A stretch of 64,000 nt of DNA from an uncultured Poribacteria bacterium. GTDB taxonomy: Bacteria > Poribacteria > WGA-4E > WGA-3G. Shown piece by piece: positions 205 to 42,557 of the stretch. Within the stretch, counting starts at the first letter, position 1, and every line of letters begins with the position of its first letter. The notes under the pieces are model-generated. The model saw only the letters and a list, made by a program, of their open reading frames with translations. It was not told the origin of the DNA and made no database searches. The stretch lies in contig OX638351.1 of assembly GCA_951813565.1 (NCBI GenBank), positions 1,952,001-2,016,000 on the forward strand, read 5' to 3'. A program made the position numbers and the translations under genes.

Positions 205-591
205 AACGACTTGTGCCAGTTAACATTTTGTTTTGTTGGTTTTCACATATATTTGCATTTGTGCTATAAACATATCGTCCCTACCAAATCAACGCCAAAT
301 GCGCCAAATCAAGAAATCAACGGTATGAATCATGGCGAATGCCAAAAGCGCATTCGTCTTTAGTCATTCACCGGGTCCGAATGCCTTTTGGCATTCCCCG
401 TCCGGCATTTGTCGGGACTAAAGAGTGCTCGTCCAATCATTTTCTATAAACATATCGTCCCTACCAAATCAACGTCAAATGCGCTTATGGCATTTGTCGG
501 GACTGAAGAACATATAAATATATGATAATGACTTACAAACATTTCTTTTGTGAAATAAAGTTCTACAAATGGTTATTTAGCACAACTCGTT
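205..591. mobile_element. MITE-like element (AACGACTTGTGCCAGTTAA family) carrying REP cargo
   Basis: Left end AACGACTTGTGCCAGTTAA, imperfect inverted right end TTTAGCACAACTCGTT. Same left end at 15816. Confidence 0.5.
285..413 (+). repeat. Nested CAAATCAACG hairpin mini-elements inside a GTCCCTAC|GGGAC REP
   Basis: Outer copy = 285-304 + 400-413 (34 bp) with further copies inside. A single 34-bp copy sits at the same position of the neighbouring REP (465-498). Confidence 0.8.
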
Positions 592-903
592 ATTGTAGGA
601 GCGAGCTCCAGCTCTCGACCTTTCATCTAAAACGTGTAATAAACCGACAATTGAATGTCTCTACTACACATCCAGAGGCATTCAATTGTCGAGTTTTCTA
701 ATCCAATAGAAAAAATAGCGTTTTCAAAGGTTAAAAGAGGCTACGAATGCCATACGTGCATTTGGCGTTGATTTGGCAATGAATTGCGCTTGGTGAATGT
801 GCGTCCGACATTTACATTAAACGCTTTTGTTGTTAAATCGGGGTTACAAACCCCTCCTACAAGAGTGTTACGTGACAATTGAATGTCTCTGCTCACATAT
901 CCG

Positions 904-999
904 GGGTGTGTGTAAAGTTTTGTAGAAATCCGCCCTACAGTGGAAAACGCCGCGTAATCATTGCAAATTGAACCTATGTAACCAAATATTTACACACCC
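904..999. mobile_element. MITE with GGGTGTGT..AAAG / TTTACACACCC ends (derivative of the IS at 51779-53504)
   Basis: Terminal inverted repeats, near-perfect 9-bp flanking duplication ACATATCCG/ACACATCCG. First ~58 bp nearly identical to 53513-53570. Confidence 0.65.
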
Positions 1000-1077
1000 A
1001 CACATCCGCTTCCACTTGACAAGAACTATAACATCGGGTAAAGTGTTGACATCGCCTTAGCTATAAGGAACACCTCT

Positions 1078-2466
1078 ATGCGCCGCTACAGCATTCAAAC
1101 CAAAATTGTCCTCCCATTTTTGCTGCTTTTCGTTCTTGTTTCTATTCTTGTGCCGTTAATAACAGTTGAACTTTTCGTGTGGAAATATAGCGAACAGTTT
1201 ACCCGTGAGACACAAGAATGGCTTAACGTAATTATACATACCGGCTACTTCCGCGATAACGAAAAGGTAAAACAGACTTATAGTGTAGAGATTATGATTT
1301 TTGGGTCTGATTACACACTCAATTCTACCACCCTAACAGAACTCCCCGATACCGAGCAAACCGCGGTGAATCTCGCAAAGAAGCTGCAGCTCGACAAGGT
1401 CAAGCAAACATTCCAAGCAGCAGATGCTTCATCTTTCACGCAAGATGTTACGCTTGGTGGTAAGCATTATAAGGTGTTTTACCGTTTAGTGCATCCCGGA
1501 CGGTTTTACTGCGTGTTACGTCCGATGGAGGAAATTGTAGACGCAAAACGCACCCTTACATGGTCTATGTTTGGCATTGCAGCCTTTGTTACTGTCCTTG
1601 TTGCCTTCATCAGTCATCGTATTGGCAAAAACTTATCAGAACCGATAAAAGATTTAGTCGGTTTTACTGAACAGGTTGCCGAGGGAAATCTTGATGAGCA
1701 ATGTGAAGTTAAGACTCATGATGAAATAGGTGACTTAACACTTGCGTTCAATCAAATGACGCAAGAACTCAAGCAGTCAAGAGATAAACTGATTCAAGCT
1801 GAACGTTTGGCAACAGCAGGGAAAATGTCCGCTTCATTTGCGCATGAAATACGGAATCCGTTATCATCTATGCGGATGTTATCGCAGATGTTAATGCAAA
1901 AACCGGAGACGTCAGATGAACAAAAGCAATCGCTGCAATATATTCTTGAGGAAATCGAACGGATTGACAACATCGTCAAAGGTTTGATGGATTTCGCCCG
2001 TCCCACAACACTTAACCTTGAACAACAAGCGTTAGTGCCTGCCTTACAATCCGTTTTAGCTTTGATGGAAGCGAACTTAACACATCATCAGATTCAGTTA
2101 GTATCGGAACTTGTTCCCAATCTCCCCGATTTTCAGTTTGATTCAGATAAAATTAAACAAGCATTTATGAATGTTGTGTTAAATGCGATGGAAGCGATGT
2201 CACAAGGTGGCACATTAACTGTGACTACGTTCAAACAGGAAGATGCCGTATGTATCAAAGTTACAGATACAGGAATCGGTATATCTGCAGAAGATATTGA
2301 ACATCTATTTGAACCGTTCTTTACTCGGAAAGAAAAAGGCACAGGACTTGGATTGGCAAATGTGAAACGTATTCTTGAAGAACATAGCGGCACGTTGGAA
2401 ATTGAGAGTACACTCAACGAAGGCACCACGGTTTCGTTGTGGTTACCGCTGAAATTTCAGGATTGA
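1078..2466 (+). CDS. Membrane sensor histidine kinase (HAMP-HisKA-HATPase, NtrY/AtoS-like)
   Basis: Two TM segments, HAMP (DEIGDL), H-box FAHEIRNPL, N-box NVVLNA, G-boxes DTGIGI, FEPFFT, GTGLGL. Confidence 0.92.
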   Translation: MRRYSIQTKIVLPFLLLFVLVSILVPLITVELFVWKYSEQFTRETQEWLNVIIHTGYFRDNEKVKQTYSVEIMIFGSDYTLNSTTLTELPDTEQTAVNLAKKLQLDKVKQTFQAADASSFTQDVTLGGKHYKVFYRLVHPGRFYCVLRPMEEIVDAKRTLTWSMFGIAAFVTVLVAFISHRIGKNLSEPIKDLVGFTEQVAEGNLDEQCEVKTHDEIGDLTLAFNQMTQELKQSRDKLIQAERLATAGKMSASFAHEIRNPLSSMRMLSQMLMQKPETSDEQKQSLQYILEEIERIDNIVKGLMDFARPTTLNLEQQALVPALQSVLALMEANLTHHQIQLVSELVPNLPDFQFDSDKIKQAFMNVVLNAMEAMSQGGTLTVTTFKQEDAVCIKVTDTGIGISAEDIEHLFEPFFTRKEKGTGLGLANVKRILEEHSGTLEIESTLNEGTTVSLWLPLKFQD

Positions 2467-2671
2467 GTGACATAAAATATTAATTGAATAAAAACAACTT
2501 ATTGCATATCATTACTTTTGCCAATTAAGAAATTTGGGGCATCTACATCCCGAAGCTAAAGCATCTGGTTTTGATGCCCATTACTGATAACATCTTCGGC
2601 AGAGCAATTGTCGCTTTAGATTGACTTTAGTTATCCTTATTTTTACAAATGTTAAACATGGTTTGCATTTT

Positions 2672-3074
2672 ATGGAGATATATGTTAAAATAAGAATATA
2701 TGATGAAAAGTTAACGCGTTTCATTTCTTCTAAAAGTGGTTTTTCCATTGCTAAAAAAGAGGTTAGTTATAGAGCATTTATTCCACCGAGTAAGAATCCA
2801 CAAGAACTTTCTGTATATCGTATCTCTACGCTGACAGAAATTGAAATTTGGGAAATTGGAAGAAAATATGTACTAAGGAAGAAATGAAATAAAAGCAAGG
2901 GCAGACTTTTTGACTGAGATTGTTTATGAGAATAACCTTATAGTAATTGCAGATACGCAAGTTCATGAACTACATGCGAATATCATGCCTCTCCCAATAG
3001 ATAAGGTAGATCGGGATGATATCTTAAGAGAACTTGCCCTTGCCAGCGAATTAGTCCCAATACCAACAAAATAA
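2672..3074 (+). pseudogene. Frameshifted hypothetical gene
   Basis: ATG 2672 frame stops at 2887. A second frame continues IKARADFL...HANIMP...LALASELVPIPTK* to 3074. Total 403 nt, so one indel near AGGAAGAAATGAAAT (~2877-2890). Confidence 0.55.
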
Positions 3075-3116
3075 AACTTCGCAGTAATATGCGGCAATAA
3101 CAAGGACGGACTGATA

Positions 3117-5789
3117 GTGATAAGAACAGAAACACCGCGCCCAGAATATCCGAGACCCGATTTCCAACGCGGCACCTCCGAAGGTATTGACTGGATAAAC
3201 CTTAACGGCACATGGGAATTTGCGTTTGACTCAGATGATGTCGGTGAAAAAGAGGAATGGTTTTCACTGAACGCGCCCGACTTCCCTTTGCAAATACAGG
3301 TGCCTTACCCTTGGGAAAGCCTTGCTGCTTGGAGAGAAGAAGACCGTGCTGATAGTGCAACCTACCTCAGCACAAATGCCTATCTTAAACCAGAAGATGT
3401 TACATGTGGAGGACTAAACCGAGAAGGGAATTATCGTGGCGAACCACGACATACAATCGGTTGGTACCGCAGAACTGTCTCTGTCCCAGAAAACTGGGGA
3501 GATAACCGCGTTATTTTGAAATTCTGTGCCGTTGACTGGAAAACAACAGTTTGGGTGAACGGCAAAGTCATCGGTGAAAATGAAGGCGGATACCTGCCCT
3601 TTGAGCTTGACATCACAGATGCGTTGACCCCGGGTAAACCTGCTACCATCGTTGTCCGTGCGTATGATGCACAAGACCACGGCGAACAACTTGCGGGGAA
3701 ACAGATAGGATGGTATACACGCACCAGCGGTATCTGGCAGACAGTCTACCTTGAACCCAGAAACGCAACCTATATCAAGCAGTGCCATATCACGCCCGAC
3801 ATTGACAATAGTACCGCCACTTTCGACGTAACAATTGATGGCGAAATAACGTCAGGCATAGAAATTCACTGGGAATGTGAAGATATGAATGGAAGCGTGG
3901 ATGCGTCAGAAAAGACACAGTTCACCGTCAATATTCCACCAGAAAAACTTCGACTTTGGGACGTAGATACGCCAAATCTTTACAACGTCACACTCAAATT
4001 GGTATCTGAGGAATCTGTTATTGACAGGATTTACACCTATTTCGGCATGCGGAAGGTCTCCATTGAAAAAGCACCCGGAGGCGACTATAATTATATCTAC
4101 CTCAACAATCGCCCCATATATCTGTTAGGCGCGCTAAATCAGTCATTCAATCCAGAAGGAGTGTATACCTTCCTCACCGATGAAGCAATCCGAACCGATG
4201 TTGAACGTTCTAAAGAGTTTGGATTCAACTTCCTTCGCCTGCATATAAAAGTTGACGAACCGCGCCTCTACTACTGGGCAGACAAGTTAGGGTTGCTCTT
4301 TATGTGCGATATTCCTAACTTCGGCAACTATACCGATTTAGCGAAAGACAGATTTGAAGAAACACTCCGCGGGAACATTGCACGCGATTTCAATCATCCG
4401 TCCATCATTTCATGGTGTAACTTCAACGAAACATGGGGACTCGGTGGGGGAGACTATAAACAACAAACTGACCGTCAAGAATGGGTGCGCGAGATGTATC
4501 ACCTTGCCAAATCACTTGACCCCACTCGTCTCATTGAGGACAACTCACCATGCCTATATGACCATGTGGAAACTGACATCAACTCTTGGCATTTCTATAT
4601 AAACGATTATAAACACGCTAAGGACCATATCGCAAACGTTGTGGAACAGACATATCCCGGCTCAAAGTTTAATTATGCTGGTGATAACGAACAAACGGAT
4701 GTGCCGCTGATTAATAGCGAATACGGCGGCATCAGTGCGGGAGCTGGTGATAAAGATATTGCTTGGTGTTTTAAATATCTAACAAATGAGTTGCGCCTCC
4801 ATCCGAAAATTTGTGGATATGTATACACCGAACTGCAGGACATTGAGTGGGAACATAACGGTTTTATGAACTACGACCGCTCGGTAAAGGAATTCGGATA
4901 CGATTACAACGACATCAACACGCTTGATTTTATTGCAATTGACTATCCACCCGGTACCGTAGTTACTCCTGGTGAAAACATAAAGTTAGACATATATGCC
5001 AGTCACTTCTCACATAAGACGATAAATGCTACAACGCTCCATTGGCAACTGGATACGCTTGAGCAAAACGGCGAACTGACGCATGGACGTATAAGCAGAA
5101 GTGTTGAAATCCCCTTTCCACAATATCAAGTAGAACAGGTGTATCAACTGGAATTTACCATTCCAGATATTAATGCCGCAGTTGGCACATTACATGTATG
5201 GGTATCCGATGAGACAGGCGCGGTTGTAGCACGCAATTACATCAATTTCGAGATATTCTTGGAAGATACCTCAGGACTCACTTCACTTTCCCATCTTCCA
5301 GGAGACATAGCCGCCAGCAAATGGGATTCGGCATCCGAAGTAACAGAACAACGCCTCACTGCACAAGGTGCTGGATACGTTGAATATCAGATAGCACTTC
5401 CAAACGATCTCAACCCTGACGAGATTACAAAGATGGAACTTGTTTTTGAGGCATCTTCGTCAAACGGTGGCTCACGGCAGACAGAACCAGAGAAATATCC
5501 ATCGGATGTTACGATCTCTGTAAACGGGACTGAGGTTGAAACTTTGACACTCCCCGATTGTCCAGCAGATGCCCGTGGCGTGCTCACCTACATCCACGAA
5601 AACCTTGGCAACTACGGCTATCTGTGTCGTGTCCAATTAAATAAAGAAACGTGCTTAAACGGAGACTCTACAGAGACGCTCACCGTGCGTTATGAAGTCA
5701 AAGGCAATGCCGAAAACAAGGGTGGACTTACGCTTTACGGCAATCGCCGCGGTAGGTATCCGACAGCACCACATATTCGCATATCATAA
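3117..5789 (+). CDS. Glycoside hydrolase family 2
   Basis: PRPEYPRP, NLGTW-like INLNGTWEF, SGIWQTVYL, NHPSIISWCNFNE (acid/base), INSEYGG (nucleophile). Confidence 0.9.
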   Translation: MIRTETPRPEYPRPDFQRGTSEGIDWINLNGTWEFAFDSDDVGEKEEWFSLNAPDFPLQIQVPYPWESLAAWREEDRADSATYLSTNAYLKPEDVTCGGLNREGNYRGEPRHTIGWYRRTVSVPENWGDNRVILKFCAVDWKTTVWVNGKVIGENEGGYLPFELDITDALTPGKPATIVVRAYDAQDHGEQLAGKQIGWYTRTSGIWQTVYLEPRNATYIKQCHITPDIDNSTATFDVTIDGEITSGIEIHWECEDMNGSVDASEKTQFTVNIPPEKLRLWDVDTPNLYNVTLKLVSEESVIDRIYTYFGMRKVSIEKAPGGDYNYIYLNNRPIYLLGALNQSFNPEGVYTFLTDEAIRTDVERSKEFGFNFLRLHIKVDEPRLYYWADKLGLLFMCDIPNFGNYTDLAKDRFEETLRGNIARDFNHPSIISWCNFNETWGLGGGDYKQQTDRQEWVREMYHLAKSLDPTRLIEDNSPCLYDHVETDINSWHFYINDYKHAKDHIANVVEQTYPGSKFNYAGDNEQTDVPLINSEYGGISAGAGDKDIAWCFKYLTNELRLHPKICGYVYTELQDIEWEHNGFMNYDRSVKEFGYDYNDINTLDFIAIDYPPGTVVTPGENIKLDIYASHFSHKTINATTLHWQLDTLEQNGELTHGRISRSVEIPFPQYQVEQVYQLEFTIPDINAAVGTLHVWVSDETGAVVARNYINFEIFLEDTSGLTSLSHLPGDIAASKWDSASEVTEQRLTAQGAGYVEYQIALPNDLNPDEITKMELVFEASSSNGGSRQTEPEKYPSDVTISVNGTEVETLTLPDCPADARGVLTYIHENLGNYGYLCRVQLNKETCLNGDSTETLTVRYEVKGNAENKGGLTLYGNRRGRYPTAPHIRIS

Positions 5790-5805
5790 TAGGAGGAATC
5801 GTTGA

Positions 5806-6885
5806 ATGGCAACACATCAATTTTTATTTACGCGTTCACCCGGTTTAGAAGGTTCATGGCCCTTCGTACACGAACAGATGGTAAAACGACTTGAAGAATT
5901 AGGCGTCACACTTGTTCTGAATACGACCAGCAAAGACCCTCTCCATCAACAAGTGGACTTGAGCGAAGTTATTGGAATCTCACATTGGGGTGGTAGTCTC
6001 ACTGAGGCTTGTATAGACAACGCACCTAAACTCAAAGTGCTCGGCACAATGACAGACAACACGGGGCATGGTATCCCGTACGCGAAACTTCAAGATCGCG
6101 GTATTCCGGTGATTGAATCTACTCGCGCATGGGCACAATCAGTAGCGGAATGTGCTTTTGGGCTCGCTTTATCCTCACTGAGGCGAACCGCACAGTGGCA
6201 CATGCAGATGGCACAAGGCGAGAAATTGTGGAATTGGAGCGACCCAATATGGGGACCGAACAAACTCCCCGTCGCACACCAATTCTGTGATGACCCCGAC
6301 TTTGTTAACGGCGATCTCGGCACAAAACAGATCGGTGTGATAGGACTTGGGCAGATTGGCAGGAAAATCGCGCAGTGGTGTCGTGCCTTTGGTGCAACCG
6401 TTATAGGCTTTGACCCATTCGTTCCTGATGAACTCCTACAAGAATGGGACGTAGAACGCGTTGATATGGACACACTCGCTGATAGGGCAGAGATTGTCTT
6501 TGTTTCTGTTCCACCGACTCCATCCGCACGACACCTACTGAACCGTGAACGTATCTATCATCTGCACAAAGGCGCATTGGTTGTCATTATCACCCGCGCG
6601 CACGCTGTTGATATGGCTGCCCTGCGCGAACGGATTGTCAAAGACGAACTCGCTGGCGCGTTTGATGTTTACGACAGAGAACCCGTACCTATTGATGATG
6701 AACTGCGGAATAGGGATAATGTCGTGCATACACCGCACATCGCTGGCAGAACAAAAGATGCTAATCTTCGCGTTGCAGATATGATTGTGGACGATTTTGA
6801 ACGGGTGCTTAAAGGGGAAAAGCCCCTCGGTGCATTGACACCAGAGGCGATTAAGGTAAGAACGTCTGATAATCCTTATGAGTGA
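5806..6885 (+). CDS. D-2-hydroxyacid dehydrogenase family oxidoreductase
   Basis: GVIGLGQIG Rossmann motif, DVYDREP, TPHIAG. RBS AGGAGG. Confidence 0.88.
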   Translation: MATHQFLFTRSPGLEGSWPFVHEQMVKRLEELGVTLVLNTTSKDPLHQQVDLSEVIGISHWGGSLTEACIDNAPKLKVLGTMTDNTGHGIPYAKLQDRGIPVIESTRAWAQSVAECAFGLALSSLRRTAQWHMQMAQGEKLWNWSDPIWGPNKLPVAHQFCDDPDFVNGDLGTKQIGVIGLGQIGRKIAQWCRAFGATVIGFDPFVPDELLQEWDVERVDMDTLADRAEIVFVSVPPTPSARHLLNRERIYHLHKGALVVIITRAHAVDMAALRERIVKDELAGAFDVYDREPVPIDDELRNRDNVVHTPHIAGRTKDANLRVADMIVDDFERVLKGEKPLGALTPEAIKVRTSDNPYE

Positions 6886-6972
6886 GTTTCATTTTTCAGA
6901 AATGGTATTATGTGGATACCCACAATCCTGAAAACCTCATTTCAGACAACATATATCGCAACCAAATTCTGA

Positions 6973-7001
6973 TTGACATTCAATTTCAGACATGGTACTA
7001 T
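6973..7001 (+). promoter_or_regulatory. Sigma70-type promoter
   Basis: TTGACA-17 bp-TACTAT with extended -10 TG, upstream of ATG 7062. Confidence 0.6.
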
Positions 7002-7061
7002 TTTCTTGCAAAGGTCCAAAGCAGAACAGACAGGAACACAACATTCTTGAGGATTGATCAG

Positions 7062-7664: not shown

Positions 7665-7741
7665 TTGTTGGTAGGTTAGATAGGCACGTTTGTCGCCTAT
7701 CTCGTGTAGAATTTCAAGGTTGTTGCCAAAGTAGAGTTTAT

Positions 7742-12473: not shown

Positions 12474-13932
12474 CAATACCTTCGCCAAAAATAATTGAAT
12501 AAATAGGGCGTCTGTCCTAAAGTTATAACAGTTAACCATAACTTAGAAAGGACAATCGCCCATGTCAGAAATTATAGCACTGTTTACTGTTCTTAATCCA
12601 TGTTTATCCGCAACGATGACGCGGCAGTTATGCCGAGTTGTATTCGCACTACTTGCGATGAGTGGTCGGGTAACCATGTTAAATATCTCTCGTTGGACAA
12701 CCCAAGGCGGTAGCTACCGCACCATACAACGCTTTTTCAACACTGTTATGCCTTGGACGACGATGTGTTGGATGTTTTTTCGCACGCATCTGTTTGATCG
12801 TGAAAGTGACTACATCCTCACAGGAGACGAAGTGGTTGTGCCAAAAGCAGGAAAATCTACTTATGGTTTATCTCGTTTCTTTTCTTCATTGTATGGCAAA
12901 GCGGTCCCCGGTTTGTCGTTTTTAGCCGTGTCCTTAGTGAGTGTCAACCGAAGGCGTTCATACCCGATGGTTATGGAGCAAATCGTGCGTGGCACCTCAT
13001 CGTCAAATCAAGGAGTTTGTGCTTCCGAACATCAGGACAACACCGAGACAGCAACACCAAGACATAAATGCGGGCGTCCAAAGGGAAGCCGAAACCGAAA
13101 CAAAGACGATGTCATGCTCAGCGATGTGTTGAAGCAACTTCAAACGATGGTCAAGGCGTTGCTAAAACTGGTTGGCAACTTGATCCCACTCCGTTATCTT
13201 GTGCTTGATGGATACTTCGGACATAATAATGCGCTACAAATGACAAAGCAATGTGGACTACATCTCATTTCAAAACTACGCATAGATGCTGCGTTGTATC
13301 TGCCACCGACGACACCTTACGCCGGACAAGGGCGCCCACGCATCTACGGAGAGCGTTTCACCCCACGACAGATTGACCCTAAGTATTGTGTTTCTGCCGA
13401 CACACAGGGAAACCTGAGAACCGAAGTGTATCAAATGAACTTACGCCACAAAAAGTTCACAGACTTCCTAAATGTAGTTTGCGTTCTCAAAACGAACTTG
13501 ACGACGAAACAACAAGCACACGTTTTACTGTTCAGTTCTGATTTAGCGTTAGACGCTGAAAAACTGATTGATTATTATTCCCTCCGTTTTCAAATCGAGT
13601 TCAACTTCCGCGACGCAAAGCAATATTGGGGATTACAAGATTTTATGAATGTCAACAAGATACCAGTAAACAATGCAGCGAACCTCTCAATGTTTATGGT
13701 GAATGTGAGTGCTAAACTCATAGATACGCTCCGTTGTAAAAATACTGCGTCCAGTGTTTTAGACCTAAAAGCACGCTACCGAGGTTTGAAGTATTTACAC
13801 GAAACATTAAAAATACTTCCGCAAAAACCTGAACCTATTGTTATTCAACAAATCGCACAACATTTGGGAACAATCGGTGCTATTCATCACACACAACCAA
13901 AACTGAACCCCGGATAATTGGCGAAGGTATTG
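12474..13932 (+). mobile_element. Complete IS element (IS4/IS701-like DDE), 1459 bp
   Basis: Perfect 15-bp IRs CAATACCTTCGCCAA (12474-12488, 13918-13932) and 6-bp target duplication ATATAC (12468-12473, 13933-13938). Confidence 0.92.
12562..13917 (+). CDS. DDE transposase
   Basis: TGDE, VLDGYF, YSLRFQIEFNFRDAKQ (Y-R-E-K motif). Fills the IS. Confidence 0.9.
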   Translation: MSEIIALFTVLNPCLSATMTRQLCRVVFALLAMSGRVTMLNISRWTTQGGSYRTIQRFFNTVMPWTTMCWMFFRTHLFDRESDYILTGDEVVVPKAGKSTYGLSRFFSSLYGKAVPGLSFLAVSLVSVNRRRSYPMVMEQIVRGTSSSNQGVCASEHQDNTETATPRHKCGRPKGSRNRNKDDVMLSDVLKQLQTMVKALLKLVGNLIPLRYLVLDGYFGHNNALQMTKQCGLHLISKLRIDAALYLPPTTPYAGQGRPRIYGERFTPRQIDPKYCVSADTQGNLRTEVYQMNLRHKKFTDFLNVVCVLKTNLTTKQQAHVLLFSSDLALDAEKLIDYYSLRFQIEFNFRDAKQYWGLQDFMNVNKIPVNNAANLSMFMVNVSAKLIDTLRCKNTASSVLDLKARYRGLKYLHETLKILPQKPEPIVIQQIAQHLGTIGAIHHTQPKLNPG

Positions 13933-15815: not shown

Positions 15816-16064
15816 AACGACTTGTGCCAGTTAAGTGAAAGTTTTTTTTGTTTTTCACAATTGTTCATATTTTGGGATCAACGCCAAATACGCTTTTGGC
15901 ATTTGGCGGGAGCGATCTCCGAATCGCGACACGTTTGCAGTCGGGAATCGGAGTTCCCTCCTACCTTGAGAACAGCAGCTATCGGAAAAGTTGCGGAATG
16001 CAAACCCAAACAAGAGGAACATGTGAAATATAAATATACCAAATGTTAACTGGCACAACGCGTA
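15816..16064. mobile_element. MITE-like element (AACGACTTGTGCCAGTTAA family)
   Basis: IRs ACGACTTGTGCCAGTTAA / TTAACTGGCACAACGCGT. Contains a REP pair like 11996-12056 and a CAAATCAACG-type hairpin. Confidence 0.6.
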
Positions 16065-16552: not shown

Positions 16553-19075
<2,523 letters not shown>

Positions 19076-25208: not shown

Positions 25209-25369
25209 TTATTATAGTGAAACCCATAATTATTTGGACATTTTGTTCTTATGCGGATTTCAAACACACGATAAATATAAGAGGCGCAATGAATTGCGCG
25301 ACTACAAACGCCGCTAACCTTAAGAAAATGTCCAGGTATTTTTAGATTTTACTATAAGAGGAGGTATAT

Positions 25370-26350: not shown

Positions 26351-26720
26351 CTAAATCAACACCGAATGCGTTTATGATATTTGGCTGATAAATATTTGCG
26401 GAAAAGTCCTTATGTGGTTGGTAAGGGTAAATACCACATAAGGACTGTTTCACTATAACATCTATTTTACAACGTCATTGGAATGAACAGATTTAACTAA
26501 AAAAATTATATCTTGACTTTTTTCGACAATTTATGATAAACTTTTGGCAGTAGGTGGGTTGTGCGTTTAACTCAATCATTTGTTGGCAGACATAGGGTTT
26601 TGCCCTCCGCCAAATCATACAGAATACCACACGGCATTTGGCGTTGATTCCATCTAAAATACGCAGCACACGCACAGACGCCCTATGACAAAAGTTTAAT
26701 CAAGGAGGCATATCTCTATT

Positions 26721-28212: not shown

Positions 28213-28821
28213 TGTATTCTCCTAAGGAATTATTTTTTTTGTCAAAATATGGTTTTTAAATTAGACGTTATTTTGGGGGAAAAGTTGGAAATCCCACTAA
28301 ATTTTCTGTGTTTCGTAAACTTAACGTGAGTTTGGTATAAGTCTATTTTTACGAATTGTCAGATTTTTCCATTGATTTTGCCTATTTTAAGGGTTTAAGA
28401 GGTAAAAATAGGTAAAACACGCTTTTATCTATGCCGAAACTCATGTTATACCATTTCAAAAAAATAACTTCTCTTAAAGAAATAGACCGTTCGTAGTTGC
28501 GCAATTCATTGCCAAATCAACGCCAAATACGCGTATGGCATTTGGCGCCTCTTACATTTTTTCAAAAGAGAAAATAATTCATAGAATTGGTATTATTTCT
28601 TACCCCGAGCCACGTTAGTATAAATCTGGAGAAAGTCTGTAAAAAATCTGCATGTGTTACGTGCAAAGACACAGCCGCGCATCCTGGACACAAGCACACT
28701 TGAACTGCCCTTCGCTCCAGGACAATACTTATGCCTGATAGTGCTGTCAATCAACGCAAAGAAAAAGGCAGATAACAAAAAGGATACCTGCCTGTCCAAA
28801 GAGCTGCCTCTGTTTACGGTT

Positions 28822-29799
28822 TTACTGCTTTATCTCGCCCCAGGTTACCGTTACTTTTTTTAGGTCTCCTTTTGGAGAGACAGAGAGCACATCGTCACTG
28901 ATCCAATCCATTGTGTAATCATCATCATCCGGTGTATTTGTCAGGTTGACGAGCTCTCCTGTCACAAGGTGATAGCTGTAGATGTCAAATTTATGATGCG
29001 GATTTTCTTTATCCCAATGTCTTCCAACAATTAACACCTGTTTAGATCCCATAAAGCATGTACTATAGATGTTCCAATTGTCAGGGGTATCTAAAATCTG
29101 ACGTTTGTCCGTGTTAATATTGTGAATGACAACTTTACTTGTAATAAACTCTCTATTCGCGTCGCGTATATCCTGAGAATACACAATAGATTGACTGTCG
29201 GGAGACCAGCGCGGACGGCTACCCCCTGTCCCAAGTGAACGGCGTCTTCTACCGTCGGCATCCATCAGATTGAAACGAGAGCCTTCTTGCCAGTAAACGA
29301 TATATGTGCCATCAGGAGACCAGGAAGGATGCAGAGCCACTTTTCCATCTATGCGTGTCAGTCGTCGCAGTGCTTTTGTTTCCAGATTTATCCGCCAGAT
29401 ATCACGTTGCGCCACTCCAGGTTTGGCAAGTCGATTACTTGAGAAGGCGATGTATTTACCATCTGGAGACCAAGTAGGGTAGTTCTCAAAAGTATCTTCG
29501 TCGGTGAACCGATATTCATCTGTGCCATCACTATTGATAATATATATAGCGGAAATTTGCGGCCAATTCGGTACCCCCGGAGGTTTTTTCGTAAAAGCGA
29601 TTTGCTTCCCATCAGGAGACCAAACGGGCCACCATCCGTCATCTGTTAACCTTTGGATATTACGCCCGTCATCGTCCATCACATAAAGTCCCGCGCCTGC
29701 ACCGCGGACGACCGATCTGAAAATGATTTTTGCGTGTGTGAGCGTTGGTAAGAATAAAAAGAGTAGCAAGCAGTAAAGGGGTATACGACGCATGATCAT
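28822..29799 (-). CDS. Secreted TolB-like (PD40) beta-propeller, cassette 3
   Basis: Signal peptide, PxWSPDG repeats, C-terminal TWGEIKQ. Confidence 0.88.
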   Translation of the reverse strand: MIMRRIPLYCLLLFLFLPTLTHAKIIFRSVVRGAGAGLYVMDDDGRNIQRLTDDGWWPVWSPDGKQIAFTKKPPGVPNWPQISAIYIINSDGTDEYRFTDEDTFENYPTWSPDGKYIAFSSNRLAKPGVAQRDIWRINLETKALRRLTRIDGKVALHPSWSPDGTYIVYWQEGSRFNLMDADGRRRRSLGTGGSRPRWSPDSQSIVYSQDIRDANREFITSKVVIHNINTDKRQILDTPDNWNIYSTCFMGSKQVLIVGRHWDKENPHHKFDIYSYHLVTGELVNLTNTPDDDDYTMDWISDDVLSVSPKGDLKKVTVTWGEIKQ

Positions 29800-29997
29800 T
29801 GTTCACCTCCATTAGACAGATGCACAAACTAAAAGTTTATGGGATAAGGTGCAGTTAGGAAACCGCACCTACCGGGTTTGGGAAAATTAGAATTACCGAA
29901 ATATTTTCTTAAACTTCATACAGTTTGTGGGACAACTTCTATTGTCCGTTATGTTCCAAAACAGGTTTATCAAAGTGTCTCAATAATTTCAAAGTTC

Positions 29998-30026
29998 ATT
30001 ATACTTATGCCTGATAGTGCTGTCAA
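29998..30026 (-). promoter_or_regulatory. Consensus sigma70 promoter (copy at 31269-31297; -10 variant TATTGT at 28722-28750)
   Basis: Minus strand TTGACA-GCACTATCAGGCATAAG (17 bp)-TATAAT. Confidence 0.8.
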
Positions 30027-30095
30027 TCAACGCAAAGAAAAAGCAGATATCTAAAAGGTACCTGCCTGTCCAAAGAGCTGCCTCTGTTTACGGTT

Positions 30096-31070
30096 TTACT
30101 GCTTTATCTCGCCCCACGTTACCGTTACTTTTTTGGGGTCTCCTTTTGGAGAGACAGAGAGCACATCATCACTGATCCAATCCATTGTGAAATCATCATC
30201 ATCCGGTGTATTTGTCAGGTTGACGAGCTCTCCTGTCACAAGGTGATAGCTGTAGATGTCAAATTTATGATGCGGATTTTCTTTATCCCAATGTCTTGCA
30301 GCAATTAACACCTGTTTAGGCCCCATAAAGCACGTACTATGGATTACCCAATTGTCAGGGGTGTCTAAAATCTGACGTTTGTTCGTGTTAATATTGTGAA
30401 TGACAACTTTACTTGTAATAAACTCCCTATTCGCGTCGCGTATATCCTCATGAGACACAATAGATTGACTATCAGGAGACCAGTCAGGACGTTCACCTCG
30501 TCCAAGTCTTTGAGGTCTGCGTCCGTCAGCAAGTATCAGATAGATACCATCACCTTCGTAAGCGATATATTTGCCATCAGGAGACCAGGAAGGAATCGAA
30601 TACCATTCGCCTTCGCGTGCGCGTGTCAGTCTTCGCAGTGCTTTTGTTTCCAGAGTTATCCGCCAGATGTCAATCTGCCCCACCCCAGGTTCGGCAAGTC
30701 GATTGCTCTCGAAGGCGATGTATTTACCATCGGGAGACCAGGTCGGGCCCCGCTCACGAGTATCTTCGTCCGTGAGCCGATATTCATCTGTGCCGTCATT
30801 ATTGATGATGTATATAGCGGAAATTTGCGGCCAATTTGGCACCCCAGGAGGTTCTGCTGTAAAAGCGATCTGCTTTCCGTCCGGAGACCACTCAGGCCAC
30901 CATCCATGTGATGCTGTCAACCTTTGAATATTACTACCGTCATCGTCCATCACATACAGTCCCATGCCTTCACCGCGGACGACCGATCTAAAAACGATTT
31001 TTGCGTGTGTAAGCATTGGTAAGAATAAGAAAAGTAGCAAGTAGTAAAGGGGTATATGACGCCTGATCAT
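30096..31070 (-). CDS. Secreted TolB-like (PD40) beta-propeller, cassette 2
   Basis: Close paralog of 28822-29799. Confidence 0.88.
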   Translation of the reverse strand: MIRRHIPLYYLLLFLFLPMLTHAKIVFRSVVRGEGMGLYVMDDDGSNIQRLTASHGWWPEWSPDGKQIAFTAEPPGVPNWPQISAIYIINNDGTDEYRLTDEDTRERGPTWSPDGKYIAFESNRLAEPGVGQIDIWRITLETKALRRLTRAREGEWYSIPSWSPDGKYIAYEGDGIYLILADGRRPQRLGRGERPDWSPDSQSIVSHEDIRDANREFITSKVVIHNINTNKRQILDTPDNWVIHSTCFMGPKQVLIAARHWDKENPHHKFDIYSYHLVTGELVNLTNTPDDDDFTMDWISDDVLSVSPKGDPKKVTVTWGEIKQ

Positions 31071-31302
31071 TGTTCACCTCCATTAGACAGATGCACAAAT
31101 CAAATGTTTATGGGGTAAGGTGCGGTTAGGAAACTGCACCTACCGGGTTTGGGAAAATTAGAATTACCGAAATATTTTCTTAAACTTCATACAGTTTGTG
31201 GGACAACTTCTATTGTCCGTTATGTTCCAAAACAGGTTTATCAAAGTGTCTCAATAATTTCAAAGTTCATTATACTTATGCCTGATAGTGCTGTCAATCA
31301 AC

Positions 31303-31341
31303 GCAAAGAAAAAGGCAGATAACAAAAAGGATACCTGCCTG
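31303..31341 (-). terminator. Intrinsic terminator after each cassette gene (also ~28756-28794, ~30034-30068)
   Basis: Minus strand AGGCAGGTA...TATCTGCCT followed by TTTTCTTT. Confidence 0.65.
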
Positions 31342-31368
31342 TCCAAAGAGCTGCCTCTGTTTACGGTT

Positions 31369-32385
31369 TTACTGCTTTATCTCGCCCCACGTTATTTTTT
31401 TTTTGTCCTGAGGTGAGACAGACAGCACATCATCACTGATCCAATCCAGCGTTTCATCCCTGCCCGGATGGTCTGTTAACTGCGTGATCACTTGTGTTCG
31501 TATATGATACTTATAGATATTAGCAGGCGGGAACTCATCAGGAGGTGGCGCCCGTTCGTTTAGTGGCAGCCCGACAAAAGCACTGAAGACAACGGAGTTG
31601 CCGTCATCCATCCAGTCAATAGTTAGCGGTCGCCAGTCCTTCGGTATCCGAAGCTGTTTGATGTTTTCTCCGTTGCGATCACAAATCAGATACCGATGTG
31701 CCTTGTAGATGAGCGCAAGGGCAAATCCGTCTCGTGGTTCCCAGACATATTCGTGATGTAGATAGACGATCTGTTTACCATCAGGTGACCAGCGCGCGGC
31801 TTTGAAGTGTCCCTGTATGGGTGGACGCAGTAGTTTTCGTGGATTATGGCCATCCGCTCCCATTATCCAAAGCGTTCCACCTACATCCCCAACGACCCCT
31901 GGCTTTGAGAACACAATCAACTTGCCATCGGGTGACCAATCACAGAAGGTTGCACTGACATCCGCGATCTTTTTTGTCTCCCCCGTTTCAATATTCAACA
32001 CGTTGATGCTCTTTTTCTCTTTGTCGTCTATTTCCACTCTCATGTTAAAAACTATAGATTTGCCATCCGGTGAAAATGACATTTTACCGATATACGCTTT
32101 ATCGGGTACTATGAGTTTCCGGATGTTTGTCCCATCTGGATGCATCAAGTATTCACCACCGCGTGAACTAAACACAATCTGTTTACCGTCGGGGGACCAG
32201 CAATCTGGGAAGGGTCTTAACTTTTCGTCTTCAATGAGGAGTGTCTGGTTACTACCATCATCATCCATAACGTAGACACCTTGCACACCGTCGTGTCTGG
32301 AACTAAAAACGATTTTGGCATCTGCCACCACACCGAAAAGCAGTAGCATCAGTAGACAAAACAAACTGATCTTTGGTAAATGCAT
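31369..32385 (-). CDS. Secreted TolB-like (PD40) beta-propeller, cassette 1
   Basis: Signal peptide, WSPDG repeats, same C-terminal DWISDDVLSVSP..TWGEIKQ. Confidence 0.88.
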   Translation of the reverse strand: MHLPKISLFCLLMLLLFGVVADAKIVFSSRHDGVQGVYVMDDDGSNQTLLIEDEKLRPFPDCWSPDGKQIVFSSRGGEYLMHPDGTNIRKLIVPDKAYIGKMSFSPDGKSIVFNMRVEIDDKEKKSINVLNIETGETKKIADVSATFCDWSPDGKLIVFSKPGVVGDVGGTLWIMGADGHNPRKLLRPPIQGHFKAARWSPDGKQIVYLHHEYVWEPRDGFALALIYKAHRYLICDRNGENIKQLRIPKDWRPLTIDWMDDGNSVVFSAFVGLPLNERAPPPDEFPPANIYKYHIRTQVITQLTDHPGRDETLDWISDDVLSVSPQDKKKITWGEIKQ

Positions 32386-34850: not shown

Positions 34851-35714
34851 TCTGATAGACAGTTACCAACATATTCTTGTAGGCGCGGTTTAAAACCGCG
34901 CCTAATGCAGCATAAAATAAGTGAGGGGTGTGGATAAATAATTCCGATGTTAAATATGCGCTTAAAGGTAGTAGGCACATGCCGCTGAATGCCAAAAGCG
35001 CATTCATAGCGTTGATTTGGTGTGCTGTCCACAAGTTCAAAGAGGCGCAGCATGCCACACGGGGAATGCCATAAGGTATTCGGTCCGTTGATTTGGCGCA
35101 TGCTGCGTTGATTTGGCAATGAATTGCGCGACTACAAACGCATTTCTATAAATCAAGCGGCACCTGGCGTCTGTCCCTGTCTGTGTTGATGCGTCAAATA
35201 TTTATGCACACTCTCAAATAAGTAGAGCGTATCTCATAAATCATTTGTAGGGCGAGGTCTCTGTGCCTCGCCATCTCTCTCATAAGTAGAAACAATGGGC
35301 GGGCACCAAATCAACGGTCCGAATGCCTTTTGGCATTCACCGGGACCCGCCCCTACGATGAATGTAGAACCTGTGTAGGGAACCGTATTTAACGATTTAT
35401 GAGATAGACTGTAGGCATTATTGGAGTTATGGTGTTTGTAGTAGCGCAATTCATTGCGCCTCTTACATGAGTTTGTAGATTGAGTAGAGCAGAGTGTAGC
35501 GAAACCTAATTGCGTGATTTCACATTTTTTGAAGAAAACTAAATCGGTTTGCAACTAAAAATAAAACCATCACATATCATTTCAAAATATACTTTACAGT
35601 CTGTTTTTAAGGTTTTTGATAATGCTTTCAATTGAACATTGGAATGGGAGATTAGTAGTTTTGCGTAAACGCTTTGTGCACGCATTGTTATACGCAATAC
35701 AGCAATTTTTGAAT

Positions 35715-38700: not shown

Positions 38701-41700
38701 AGGAACTGAACCGAATTATCTTTGACATGCTATTCCAACGCGATATACGGCAGCTCGGTCCTCTCAGTTTTGATTCTAAACTTGAGTTCCTTCTGACACA
38801 AGGTACATCGCAGCTTGATATCATGCTTGAATATACACTTTTCGGTGATCCGGCGATGCAGATTGCTATGGCAGACCATGAAATCCTTCCTGTAATTGAG
38901 ACAAAGACGGTCAAAGCAGGCGATAAACTTAAGATCGCCTCCGGATTCATTCAGACTGCACACTACGATACTGAAACGAACAAGAAGGTTTTTACCCGTA
39001 ATACCAGTTTTAATGGGGAATTAACAGTAAAAGTTATTTTTCCCGGACAACAATCTGTTGGTGTTGATAAAACCGGTGCCCCAAGAGAGTTCTACTCCGG
39101 TGATGTTCCTGTAATAGAGACGTTACAAGTGCAAAACGGCAGTTATGATGCTGTTGAAATAGATGTGCCAGAAAATATTTCACCGGGCGATGCACATGTA
39201 GAGTATTATGCAGAAAACGCAACCGAAATTGCTGTTGGCGGCGACGGTTTCACTGTTGAGGTGCCGAAAATACTTGACATAAAACAGCAATTGATTACGA
39301 CCTCAGACGGAGAGGAGATGATTGATATCTCTGTAAACATTTCTGATGATGAAAAGATGGTTGATTCCGTTGTGTTAGAGTGGCGAAATCCGGAAACTCA
39401 CACGTGGGAAAAGGTTGACCTTGAAATAGATACTGAATCAACATCTCCTTTAGTGTCTACAGCAAGGTGGTGGAAACTTCCTGAACCTTTACCAGTCCCA
39501 ACTGATGGTTCCGCTTTTCGATATGATATTCAGATTACGGATATGGATGGGTTTGTTGTAAATTCCGATTATTACCGATTCTATCCATATATGTATCCTA
39601 ATCTTTCAGTGGTTTATAAGCGTAGAGAAAGTGTCGGACAGATCAGTTATAATTTGGGTGATCCAAAAGATGCTGCACAGGGACGCTTTTTGTCTGTTGA
39701 TGTTGAAGTTGTAGGTTCCACTAATTCTAACGATAATGCTGTTTCTGACAACGATCTGATATCCGAATTCGGACTTTCTGATATTAATGTAGAAGTAGCC
39801 TTTTTTAGCGGAAATCCAGATATAGATGACAATGGTATTATTGACACTGATGCTAATCTGCTTGGCAGAACGGAAATAAAACCGGACGATTGGGTTGTGC
39901 GCAATCCGCTACATCAAGGGGGTGGTGCGTATACACCTGATCCACTCAATATCAATCCTATTGCGACTGCCGCTATCCCAATATCTTTGCGCAGCGGCAT
40001 ACACGACGTGTTTGTCTATGTTGATCCGATTTTTAGCGAGGCGGAACAACCCGGAAAAGTTCTTGAAAATTATGAGCAAGATAATATTGGGTATAAACAA
40101 CTCACTATTTCCGGCAATATCATCGGGGAAGTGCCAACACGAAGCACTAGTGCTGATGGCGGCATCCGCATAATAACACCAGCAGGTGTAGTCGCGAATA
40201 AGTCTTCACTTCTTACTGTTTTGCCAATAGTTCCAGATACTGTGGACGCTGATTATGCCTATTTTATTGGTGGCACAGGAGAGGTGCGAAGCACTAAAAC
40301 AAAATCACCGCTTCCTATTATTGGAAGTGAACAAAAAGGCAATATTAAAACAGGGATGCTTTTTCCGGTAATGTTCCCAACACATCCATCTCTACTCGGT
40401 TATACATTGCACCTAAACGAAACAGAATCTGATGACCTATGGAATGCCTTTACACTCCAGGCACCAGTTGCCGTTGAACTTGATTTTGATTGGACAGCAC
40501 TGCAACAGGAGGTGATGCGGGAGCTTTTTGGTAGTGGGACGGATGTGTCAACTGATATGTCTGTTATAGAGGAAACCCTTAGTGCTGCTGTTGAGGAACG
40601 AGCGCGTAATATCGGTGCATATCTGTGGCTTGATGCTTTGTCTAACTGGACACGGCTTGATTCTGAAATCAAAAGACATCCAAATGGTGGTATCCATACA
40701 GCTACCCGTGCCACCCAAATTCGGAACGATAACACCAGTGATAGGAGAATTAAAGATGTAAATATCCCATCAGAGGGCGCTAACATAGGTGTCTGGATAA
40801 TCCTTTTTGAGACTGCACAGACCTACCGTCTTCTCTTTATACCCGGCGATCCTTCAGAGGTGACGACATTAGATAATCGCCAATTAGAAGAGATTGCGAG
40901 AGGGATACCGCTTAGATCTTTTACGCATGCAGGCATAACTTCCACTGCAGCTGTGCCTGAATTTACTTTTGATATCGAAGAGGGGGACACCTCTTTTCAA
41001 TTCGGTGATATTTTACGTTTCAGCGTCACGCAACTTGAAGTACCGGGTGAGGTGGGGAGTTCTCAATTTTACGCGTCATCTTTTATCAGCGGAAACAGAG
41101 GAGATGGGACAATTCAATATCTTGATTTGAGTCCAGAGACAACAATTCCACTGGATACTTGGCTTATCATGTTTGTTTCTCCAACGCAGTTTCAGATTGA
41201 AGGGAGAAACAGTGGAGTCTTGACGAAGGATGGAGTGCCAATATACGGGACAGTCGGTAAGCCTTTTGAATATAGTGATTATGGGTTGAATCTATTGATA
41301 ACACAAGGTCCTATCCCTTTTATTGTCAGTGATCGGTTCTTGTTTGAAACGTCTAAGGTGGGAACAATTCAAGCAAAAACTTCATATTTAGGCACAGTTA
41401 CTTGCCTGCGAAGCGAGGATAAAGTGCCTCCAGACATACAATTAACCATTGGCAACCAGCAACATTTTACTTCTGGTGCCCCAGTTGATGCCAAGCCACT
41501 TATCCAGGCAACGCTCACTGATGCGCGCGGTATTGATTACGTCACGCGTCCTGTTCAACTCGCTTTGGGAAGGTTTGGAGAATTTGAAACTATCTCCGAA
41601 ACCGAGTACAAACTCATACAGCATCCAAGTTCTACGCAATTGGTATTGACGTATAATTCTCCTGAACTTGAACCTCGCGAATATCAACTCCGACTCACGG

Positions 41701-42056
41701 CGAGTGATCTTGATGGAAATGAGGGAGAGAGTGAGATTACTTTTCAGGTGCATGGCAAACTCCAACTGATAGAACCCTTGAATTATCCGAATCCGTTTAC
41801 ACGGGATACCACAGTGACATGTGAATTAACAACGCCTGCTGAGTCGCTCACTGTCAAAATTTACACCCTTACCGGAAGGCTTATCCGACAACTTGAAACT
41901 GAGGCACCAGCAGGGTTTATACAACTTAAGTGGGATGGCAAAGATGATGAAGGTAGCGAAGTTGCTAACGGAGTCTACTATGGAAAAATTATTGTTAAAA
42001 GCCTTGATGATGAAGATGACCAGACCCACATTCTGAAAATGATGAAATTGAAATAG
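35715..42056 (+). CDS. porU: PorU-like C25 (gingipain-family) cysteine peptidase/sortase with C-terminal FlgD-Ig/T9SS-CTD-like domain
   Basis: Signal peptide, C25 propeptide-like N-terminus, FGDGTYDF, catalytic AGHGG and LSCYNG, LFGDP, C-terminal NYPNPF..IYTLTGRLI..WDG..ANGVY. Start uncertain. Confidence 0.75.
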   Translation: MSPRISVRAMCASCFIFLSILFVFSSAAIAEVTQTTTADGITVNFKLPQLHVTQVKPDAQFKRAGAGGVYHTVKYSDCDWIRELGYPKLPVTRVLLAIPSDAKLNKADISVKAGVLQTRSGIRLLQNQKETNPNTTTNLYPTVLARIETDGYIRSQRVISLALHPVQYSAATRELHSYSSLTVFIPFDSQLETRGASATFNPALSNLKGTRSPYEQTFAQHIFNYTDYRKVFNVDLERSRTFRAGMGVFPSAPAAPGLTDESLQTRYKLYIDEAGVYKIPAASLRTDWGIDLIGVDPRKLRLMHGDQEIPIYVSGAVDRSFDAEDAIFFLAHSSTDPNSPFPKNAYTLWNVYWLSVATEGHPARVPQIEASPSDATAVQVPTFRSRVVFEEDHLSNNLEFVDADIVAAGDKHKWFDALDFWYWDGIKNASDIGELRLAFPLYDVAKSFDPPQIHVVLQGGTPVTHEILASINGVQIDRVKWESQAQVTLSTGLRVWNNLKDASQGETNVLSLTRIDDTFEEDTTRYPYHIYLNRFWVDYTRLFLAVNDQLRFGTPVKSVQDNENKGVTHQFRVDAFLDPQISVFETDGNTLTAKLQGVDVTRHVTDNTMRARLSALNSGDFRAVPNNTYTATFQIPNTRTTEFIAVSDTALRKPAQIDTVPPSDLRSPLNGVDYLILTHAKFRDTAERLANWRATAGGGGYRTKVVDVADVYNTFGDGKVHPIWIKNFLTYAYQNWAPPALSYLVIFGDGTYDFRGINKEIYLEPPELTGYIPPHYISTDSFGRTSVDHWYATVSGHDEFVDFYLGRISVETEAEADAVVDKIINYEAQRPNGGWRRRIISVADDEVSNSGDHIFKKSLNEIAKDHTRLGYETVEIYLEDVIDEVEANPEEFSGRLPRHVAKDRIINALGQGAAIAQYAGHGGRIVWAHEAIFDNASIDKIEETGHLPFMLVLSCYNGYFDDPGEPSMAEKLLRKERGGIIGMLSATRLTYGDGNEELNRIIFDMLFQRDIRQLGPLSFDSKLEFLLTQGTSQLDIMLEYTLFGDPAMQIAMADHEILPVIETKTVKAGDKLKIASGFIQTAHYDTETNKKVFTRNTSFNGELTVKVIFPGQQSVGVDKTGAPREFYSGDVPVIETLQVQNGSYDAVEIDVPENISPGDAHVEYYAENATEIAVGGDGFTVEVPKILDIKQQLITTSDGEEMIDISVNISDDEKMVDSVVLEWRNPETHTWEKVDLEIDTESTSPLVSTARWWKLPEPLPVPTDGSAFRYDIQITDMDGFVVNSDYYRFYPYMYPNLSVVYKRRESVGQISYNLGDPKDAAQGRFLSVDVEVVGSTNSNDNAVSDNDLISEFGLSDINVEVAFFSGNPDIDDNGIIDTDANLLGRTEIKPDDWVVRNPLHQGGGAYTPDPLNINPIATAAIPISLRSGIHDVFVYVDPIFSEAEQPGKVLENYEQDNIGYKQLTISGNIIGEVPTRSTSADGGIRIITPAGVVANKSSLLTVLPIVPDTVDADYAYFIGGTGEVRSTKTKSPLPIIGSEQKGNIKTGMLFPVMFPTHPSLLGYTLHLNETESDDLWNAFTLQAPVAVELDFDWTALQQEVMRELFGSGTDVSTDMSVIEETLSAAVEERARNIGAYLWLDALSNWTRLDSEIKRHPNGGIHTATRATQIRNDNTSDRRIKDVNIPSEGANIGVWIILFETAQTYRLLFIPGDPSEVTTLDNRQLEEIARGIPLRSFTHAGITSTAAVPEFTFDIEEGDTSFQFGDILRFSVTQLEVPGEVGSSQFYASSFISGNRGDGTIQYLDLSPETTIPLDTWLIMFVSPTQFQIEGRNSGVLTKDGVPIYGTVGKPFEYSDYGLNLLITQGPIPFIVSDRFLFETSKVGTIQAKTSYLGTVTCLRSEDKVPPDIQLTIGNQQHFTSGAPVDAKPLIQATLTDARGIDYVTRPVQLALGRFGEFETISETEYKLIQHPSSTQLVLTYNSPELEPREYQLRLTASDLDGNEGESEITFQVHGKLQLIEPLNYPNPFTRDTTVTCELTTPAESLTVKIYTLTGRLIRQLETEAPAGFIQLKWDGKDDEGSEVANGVYYGKIIVKSLDDEDDQTHILKMMKLK

Positions 42057-42117
42057 CTGATGGTAGGCAGCATCCTGATAACCGACAACTAATACCAAAT
42101 TCATTTGATTCATCGTC

Positions 42118-42195
42118 TTTACATACCGCTCCGCTGGAGCGGAAGACAGAAAACTCCACGTGCTATAAACATACCGCTCCGCTGGAGCGGAAGAG
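42118..42195. repeat. Two copies of REP-like hairpin ACATACCGCTCCGCTGGAGCGGAAGA
   Basis: Direct repeat of a palindromic unit, related to CTATAAACATATCGTCCCTAC units at 264 and 444. Confidence 0.7.
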
Positions 42196-42557
42196 TAGAA
42201 AAAACACTGGAAAAACAAGACGAATTACGTTAATTTGGTATAACAACTGACAACCGACTTATGAAAAAAGAAAATATCGTAGGGAATCAACGCTGAATAC
42301 GCTTTTGGCATTAGCGAGCAGAACAACGTGAAACCTATTTTAGGAATATTCACGTTCGTAGTCGCGCAATTCATTGCCAAATCAACGCCAAATACGCGTA
42401 TGGTATTTGTCGCCTCGGACATTCTGTAGGAGCGTCCTCCTGGTCGCGACATATTACGAATGGTCGCTCCCGCCGAATACCACAAGCGTATTCGGCGTTG
42501 ATTCACAAGAAGAAAATCGGGCTTATAAGCCCTCCAACGAGAAAATTAGATACTCTT

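Follow-up and report, generated by a model that had tools for sequence, protein, structure and literature searches.

Small dispersed repeats (SDRs) of Nostoc and relatives, which Elhai et al. are said to have described in 2008, reportedly consist of a conserved stem-loop 21-27 nt in length, nest within one another and are present in minitransposons; to our knowledge no enzyme has been assigned to them. One of them, SDR5, inserts at a precise step in HIP1, according to the accessible part of PMC4390886. How repeats of less than 50 bases spread in bacteria is an open question. We analyzed a stretch of 64,000 nt (the window) from an uncultured Poribacteria bacterium (assembly GCA_951813565.1, contig OX638351.1, positions 1,952,001 to 2,016,000 of the forward strand), part of a single-contig 5.43-Mb genome (G000), in which a first-pass annotation had noticed a 34-36 bp hairpin element lying in repetitive extragenic palindromes (REPs). 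This element, hereafter the unit, is a real micro-element, non-coding, structure-conserved and mobile, made of two variable bases and an AATCAA leader followed by a bulged hairpin, and it is apparently among the smallest mobile DNAs. The family is abundant, about 100 genomes were sampled (many of them single-contig), and the junctions are readable; the copies are almost all intergenic and no effect on the host has been shown.

A structural parser applied to this genome returned 623 un-nested units (227 of them distinct) with a common layout, i.e. two variable bases and AATCAAC, a 9-bp stem, and a loop of 6-8 nt in which one more C-G pair is usually concealed. Their length, counted before the closing G, is 33-37 nt, and a 2-nt bulge lies near the stem foot in 194-195 of the 623. 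Folding placed the G that follows the stem opposite the C of AAC, and the most apt notation for the unit is therefore a leader of 8 nt followed by a 10-bp hairpin closed by C-G; each unit has a single hairpin, unlike the pair of left and right subterminal hairpins of the IS200/IS605 kind. The tetramers at the hairpin foot are TCAA, CAAC and AACG, and the GT(A/G)G tag of REPs is not among them. The leader had been taken as fixed, (C/G)AAATCAACG, a description that has to be relaxed: the two bases before AATCAACG vary, being CA in 550 of 1270 occurrences, TG in 170, GA in 148, TA in 72, CG in 64 and others in the remainder. The proposed covariation of the stems was confirmed in an alignment of 45 distinct units of the commonest length class (9/7/9), drawn from the window and other genomes with one decayed window copy excluded. 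Double changes occurred at 5 of the 10 pairs, 92% of cells were paired, and none of 500 shuffles equaled the score, which is not a probability because the sequences are related and kinship was uncontrolled. A type-II variant with the leader AATCATG gave about 125 pattern matches in the genome, with a net insert of about 24 nt; its hairpin loop reads in the opposite sense to that of the ordinary (type-I) unit, and it replaces 2-5 bases on entering type-I stems.

The sequence AAATCAACG occurs 817 times in the genome and 12 times in the window, against 1.01 expected (0/100 shuffles reach 12); two of these 12 matches (7483 and 36413) are within genes, lack the hairpin and are due to chance. Leader-plus-arm units number 811 in 454 clusters, 11 of which are inside open reading frames (ORFs), with up to 12 leaders per cluster. 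When degenerate and nested copies are included there are 16 type-I units in the window, and a unit is present at each of the 13 places that the first-pass annotation had listed.

The flanks of the units fell into 131 contexts in this genome, 63 of which involve unit-derived flanks, and further contexts are present in other genomes. More than a hundred separate sites are occupied in a genome. We compared filled and empty alleles in 36 context families, several of them related to each other, for which at least two empty alleles were available. In the filled forms of all 36 the stem is followed by G. The commonest empty allele has G at +1 in 21 families and is ambiguous in three, whereas in the remaining 12 at most 5% of the empties carry G at that position (e.g. 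77 vs 1, 53 vs 0 and 17 vs 0); the empty form GGCAC-A-GAGACC, for instance, was found 77 times against one with G, and CTG-TA-GGAG 53 times against none. As the filled forms always have the G that the empties of 12 families do not, the unit supplies its own terminal G, and 1-3 target bases disappear at the leader end. Insertion is therefore a replacement of 1-3 target bases without duplication, with the right end at the 3' foot of the hairpin. This asymmetry, in which the hairpin foot is fixed and 1-3 target bases are replaced at the opposite end, constrains any enzyme that may be proposed.

If the base lost is a G preceded by C, insertion looks clean at C|G, and replacement and clean C|G insertion are then indistinguishable. 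The latter was the original reading, i.e. cut-and-paste with C|G on both sides by a classical REP-associated tyrosine transposase (RAYT) or an IS200/605 TnpA. The 21 families with G at +1, most of which look precise, agree with it, as does the hairpin foot: the third and fourth guide bases of RAYTs pair with the cut dinucleotide (PMC8266576, accessible part), so that the foot tetramer AACG would select C|G. Three RAYT-like and five IS200/605 genes score in this genome. We nevertheless regard this reading as improbable, because the left junction is mostly C|C (519 C|CA, with T|G, A|G and others less common), at least 12 families have lost target bases, no flanked gene was found, and four unit-rich genomes have no match to a Y1 transposase. 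A clean C|G split of the host at 35307 is contradicted directly, as 20 of 20 empties read GGCAC-A-GGGACC and the A is lost; for the host at 34984 the 36-nt insert is exact, with no same-flank empty copy found to set against it. What stands of the earlier description is a minimal, structure-conserved element with empty and filled sites and with neither a terminal inverted repeat nor, apart from one ambiguous C, a target duplication; clean insertion at one dinucleotide does not, given the unit's own G and the 1-3 bases lost.

The stem is followed by G in 107 of 121 non-tandem contexts and by GGG in 51 of them. On the 5' side only the last base before the insertion is biased (C in 33 of 37 CA contexts) and there is no fixed tetra- or pentanucleotide; these position counts cover 88 contexts, found with a regular expression that missed several subtypes and preceding the parser that gave 131. 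The tendency of targets to form hairpins is weak (median -3.2 vs -2.3 kcal/mol, p=0.02), and different stem subtypes occupy the identical site. A repeated flank was present in 36 of the 68 non-unit contexts and at 29.5% of background sites (p about 4e-5), a preference for other repeats that is real but modest. The idea that the unit parasitizes REPs was thus right in that its hosts include true GTAG REPs, which flank RAYT genes in relatives, and wrong in treating them as its specific target, since 63 of the 131 contexts are other units.

We looked for empty and filled alleles by trying 93 units of other genomes against this genome. Two-sided alignments were obtained for 19, of which two gave clean pairs with G000, one with single-copy flanks and two nested units (L062) and one with multicopy flanks (L043); the remaining 17 intergenic regions were too rearranged for a call. 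The relative G006 has an empty REP in the region that corresponds to 42378 and lacks the entire cassette around 28513; it shares the unit at 26608-26651, but without a 10-nt insert present in the window copy. The presence/absence comparison across genomes that had been suggested therefore yields polymorphic sites. When the same intergenic region was followed across 29 relatives its repeat content varied widely. The main host REP gave 202 empty and 91 filled matches, the filled ones distributed unevenly over several flank haplotypes (34 filled and 7 empty on some, 5 and 52 on others).

That linkage to haplotypes is what would be expected if a few ancient insertions had been multiplied only through REP and miniature inverted-repeat transposable element (MITE) mobility and slippage. 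The copy at 28513, which rides the cassette missing from G006, and a nested 36-mer present 38 times in the genome point the same way. Set against this are the 131 contexts in one genome, with more in others, and the filled and empty alleles at single-copy sites (L062), and passive carriage as the sole explanation has little chance of being right; confinement to one or two ancestral composite repeats was not seen. The mixture of evidence indicates that new insertion, passenger copying and conversion all contribute.

The unit pattern was found in all 37 sampled genomes of the genus (8-556 matches each), in 53 of 57 of the sister genus and in 92 of 99 of the family. Of 51 genomes from elsewhere in the phylum 2 had it, with a single match each, and a reversed-pattern control was near zero. 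Among public sequences, Candidatus Poribacteria accounted for 75 of the 80 loci listed (the best 80 of at least 119), and no cyanobacterial locus was among those 80. The presence of the pattern across many assemblies, in 92 of the 99 genomes of the family, rules out restriction to one genus and equally a library adapter or assembly artefact, and an Rfam scan of the window returned tRNA only and no described model matching the unit, so neither of the origins that the annotation had raised as a danger was seen. Phage carriage was rejected, as none of 26 pattern matches in viral sequences had a convincing family stem by eye. The three resident CRISPR repeats bear no likeness to the unit, and a CRISPR repeat origin was rejected on that ground and because Cas1, although present, would duplicate its target. 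No common gene was seen by eye beside the 16 most unit-rich intergenic regions.

A rival account has no dedicated enzyme: units would spread among hairpin-rich intergenic repeats through homologies of 1-4 bases, by template switching of a polymerase and by short-patch gene conversion. A 10-nt partial copy at window position 26611 has AAT homologies at its points of entry and exit, the type-II variant is nearly always found after AAT in a type-I stem (125 copies), one site can be filled by different stem subtypes, 18 of the 623 simple units have the leader on both sides, and no enzyme tracks the unit. As a complete account this is unlikely, as it does not account for the retention of a single leader and a single bulged fold throughout two large genera, for the position of the right end at the hairpin foot, or for the non-repeated flanks of 32 of the 68 non-unit contexts.

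The reading that we favor, with a probability of about 0.45, is that an HUH-type enzyme transfers the hairpin in trans as a single strand, with a precise junction at one end and trimming at the other. The protein that recognizes the folded single strand of the unit in trans would most likely be an HUH/Y1-type strand-transfer enzyme that is either not dedicated to the unit or not yet recognized as such. The hairpin-foot end would be joined precisely to a nicked target, usually before G and often GG, at hairpin feet and loops, while the opposite, free 3' end would lose 0-3 bases or be joined through chance homology of 1-4 bases. The unit is multiplied further as it travels with REPs and MITEs, and into tandem runs. 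Trimming of a free 3'-OH end and tandem assembly by strand transfer have both been proposed (Ton-Hoang 2012, PMC3333891, accessible part).

Several results weigh against this transfer model. No mover was found. The genome has ten Y1 matches, five of the IS200/605 type and three above the RAYT cut-off, and none is inside the window, as the first-pass annotation had said; the check that it had proposed, for a Y1 or RAYT gene flanked by the hairpin, showed no such gene bracketed by the unit. Among 42 RAYT-like loci of the family and order inspected by eye, most of them flanked by GTAG REPs that include the types hosting the unit, four had one nested unit or variant nearby and none had a unit array. 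No Y1 match was found in 4 of 24 genus genomes (G001, G010, G023 and G024, 73-97% complete), which carry 79, 126, 164 and 40 copies respectively. Unit number does not vary with RAYT presence (medians 97.5 vs 82 in 28 and 10 genomes, p=0.18), and of 16 genomes from other families without the unit, 11 have RAYT-like genes. The two junctions of the unit differ in dinucleotide, partial copies and leader stutters mean that enzyme-free copying also acts, and no replichore bias, i.e. no lagging-strand preference of the IS200/IS605 kind, was apparent (225 vs 198, p=0.2), though with an uncertain terminus and a GC skew too weak to make this count firm. The cumulative GC skew of the whole genome is irregular, with no clear switch at dnaA. 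The Y1 absences are softened by two observations, i.e. G023 retains GTAG REPs though it has no RAYT match, and REP numbers in E. coli are similar with and without the gene (Ton-Hoang 2012, PMC3333891, accessible part); they therefore weaken an HUH enzyme and are not decisive, and mobilization of the unit in trans by such an enzyme is possible. Three or four RAYT clades at least are present in the family, and each has a GTAG REP type of its own on its flanks (L293-L312, L214-L243).

We also considered movers of other classes. An RNA intermediate would draw on the opposite strand, which resembles a terminator (a hairpin with a U-rich tail), and would be copied into nicks by a reverse transcriptase (RT). 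The variable end falls where a terminated RNA would end, mismatches on that strand tend to be G-U (92 vs 26 by copies; 45 vs 22 by distinct arms, p=0.007, the arms being non-independent), and there are two RT genes in this genome. We give this route only slight credence, as 3 of the 5 genomes examined, G017 (278 copies) and G023 among them, gave no RT match, and as the terminator orientation is the less frequent one in the 120 nt next to a stop codon (32 vs 73). A role as an intrinsic terminator was itself rejected because the orientation after stop codons opposes it; between co-directional genes the counts were 146 vs 115 (p=0.06). One of the RT genes, of group-II-like type, adjoins cas1 and a 54-repeat CRISPR array (L011/L257, G000:C1:3.989-3.996 Mb), two more arrays being present; a Drt4-type RT scores above its NCBIfam cut-off, and loci L256 and L012 are listed with the same RT/CRISPR group.

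The leader ends in AAC and the unit in a pairing G, an architecture that, judged against the attC consensus, resembles the cassette-borne part of an attC site, and a folded, bulged single strand of this kind could be a substrate for a tyrosine recombinase. This is the least probable of the mechanisms considered. Integron genomic targets are given as GWT in the sources accessible to us, while the targets here are GGG in 51 of 121 contexts; the only tyrosine recombinase of the genome scores far below the integron cut-off, and it is found in none of 64 sister-genus genomes although 53 of 57 carry units. For the resident recombinase the attC reading is already largely refuted, and that protein was rejected as the mover on its distribution (present in 27 of 39 genomes of the genus and in none of 71 others of the family). 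It is the sole match of its class (L159:2855-3478; G000:C1:4771357-4771977, minus strand), has 207 aa with the catalytic domain only, and is 77-95% conserved where present. Its gene lies about 100 kb from the point opposite dnaA, with conserved palindromes up- and downstream in most of 12 orthologs, and from sequence the two together are possibly a single-protein Xer/dif-like system. IS110 was rejected as well, having no match in this genome. If single-strand transfer with replacement insertion were right for this sub-40-base DNA and the mover were none of Y1, RT, IS110 or tyrosine recombinase, the enzyme would be unrecognized or host-encoded, and possibly the same as that moving cyanobacterial SDRs; we consider this version doubtful.

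Some copies in the window are nested. The most elaborate, at 285..413 (+), is a four-deep nest in a GTCCCTAC/GGGAC palindrome that decomposes exactly into three type-I units and one variant. The outermost, A, comprises 285-304 + 400-413; B, in the loop of A, 305-312 + 374-399; C, in the leader of B, 313-330 + 359-373; and the type-II AATCATG copy in the stem of C occupies 331-358. The other type-II copy of the window is at 26611-26622. A simple unit of 34 nt plus the closing G lies in GTCCCTAC|GGGAC at 465..499 (+), with its fold and two same-flank empty copies in support. The GCGCAATTCATTGC|GCCTC REP is filled at 741..775 (-, a 34-nt insert at 742-775) and at 28513..28547 (+, 34 nt at 28513-28546, with 30 empty CG copies). 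GCGCAATTCATTGC REPs are also filled at 35046..35115 (-), where a 69-nt insert (35047-35115) consists of two units with the inner one (35061-35095) in the loop of the outer, and at 42378..42412 (+, 34 nt at 42378-42411), where the same-region REP of G006 is empty. A bulged 36-nt unit in a GTAGGCACATGCC-type REP spans 34983..35019 (-), with the insert at 34984-35019 and no identical-flank empty copy found. A bulged 35-nt unit at 35307..35342 (+, insert 35307-35341) replaces the A in GGCAC-A-GGGACC, and all 20 empty copies read CAG. These insert coordinates, and 465-498 for the simple unit above, agree exactly with the first-pass annotation, and both empty REPs that it named are present, i.e. GTAGTCGCGCAATTCATTGCGCCTCT at 25280..25305 (-), a REP type that flanks a RAYT clade in relatives (L303-L307), and 35438..35464 (+).

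Other copies are at the feet of REPs or decayed. A unit with the decayed leader GATCAAC lies at the GTAG foot of a GTAGGAGCGATCTCC-type REP (15874..15908, +), in line with the family pattern. A slightly decayed unit follows GTAG at 42283..42316 (+), a unit prefixed by TG has replaced the host A at a REP foot that reads GTA|GGAG (42471..42505, -), and a degenerate unit lies just past a stop codon (26352..26386, +). The old unit at 26608..26651 (-), aligned with its G006 counterpart, holds the window-specific 10-nt partial type-II copy in its 3' arm. The filled REP at 28513 is carried by a 147-bp MITE-like cassette with TATACCA...TGGTA ends (28446..28592, no strand assigned) that is wholly absent from G006. 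When contigs of four runs were compared with the window, those of X5, X6 and X9 ended their match exactly at 28512 and that of X4 continued into the unit, which is a hint of strain polymorphism only, as assemblies break at repeats and no joint proves an empty allele. Nearby, at 28822-32385, three tandem PD40 beta-propeller paralogs have no counterpart where G006 aligns in synteny, and they diverge in some of the runs. A Pfam scan of 41 of the 70 listed ORFs in the window found one transposase, an IS701-like DDE enzyme (12562-13917, between dnaA and recF), of which G006 has a 92% identical copy elsewhere, inverted.

By description, then, rather than by sequence, the unit resembles the Nostoc SDRs in being a very small module with a stem-loop that nests in itself and in mini-elements, as those repeats reportedly do. 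It differs in its length (33-37 nt before the closing G, 35-37 nt for the unit as a whole, against a reported 21-27 nt), its phylum, its AATCAAC leader and the replacement of 1-3 target bases. With the ends of IS200/IS605 elements it shares the order of cut, leader of about 10 nt and imperfect hairpin seen at the left end, and the lack of target duplication; it has one hairpin only and no fixed 4-5 nt target, and no likeness to the resident IS605 ends was seen. Palindrome-associated transposable elements (PATEs) are non-autonomous derivatives of the same IS200/IS605 family. The CGTC-tagged REPs (Di Nocera 2013, PMC3733652, accessible part) are likewise tagged hairpins, of 8-9 bp, without a dedicated transposase, but the tag of the unit differs, its bulged loop is longer, and it is single or nested where those are mostly head-to-head dimers. 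In the literature covered, which included few subscription papers, we found no description of Poribacteria repeats like the unit, nor of an SDR paired with a RAYT.

Together with the Nostoc SDRs, the closest known systems include GTAG REPs, bacterial interspersed mosaic elements (BIMEs) and REP doublets forming hairpins (REPINs), with their RAYTs (PMC8266576, PMC3333891, PMC3116915 and PMC6006769, each in its accessible part). They and the unit are intergenic, tagged and bulged hairpins of 20-50 nt in hundreds of copies, both form tandem arrays without target duplication, and the foot tetramer of the unit could guide C|G. Unlike these repeats, the unit has no GT(A/G)G tag and no flanked transposase, is single rather than a doublet, inserts into REPs and into itself, and has junctions that are not one dinucleotide: joining at one dinucleotide fits C|G on the right in 21 of the 36 families, but not the left junction or 12 further families. 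By the features tested the unit is outside the REP/RAYT and IS200/605 families, and its behavior is that of a tagged hairpin repeat of the SDR/REP type.

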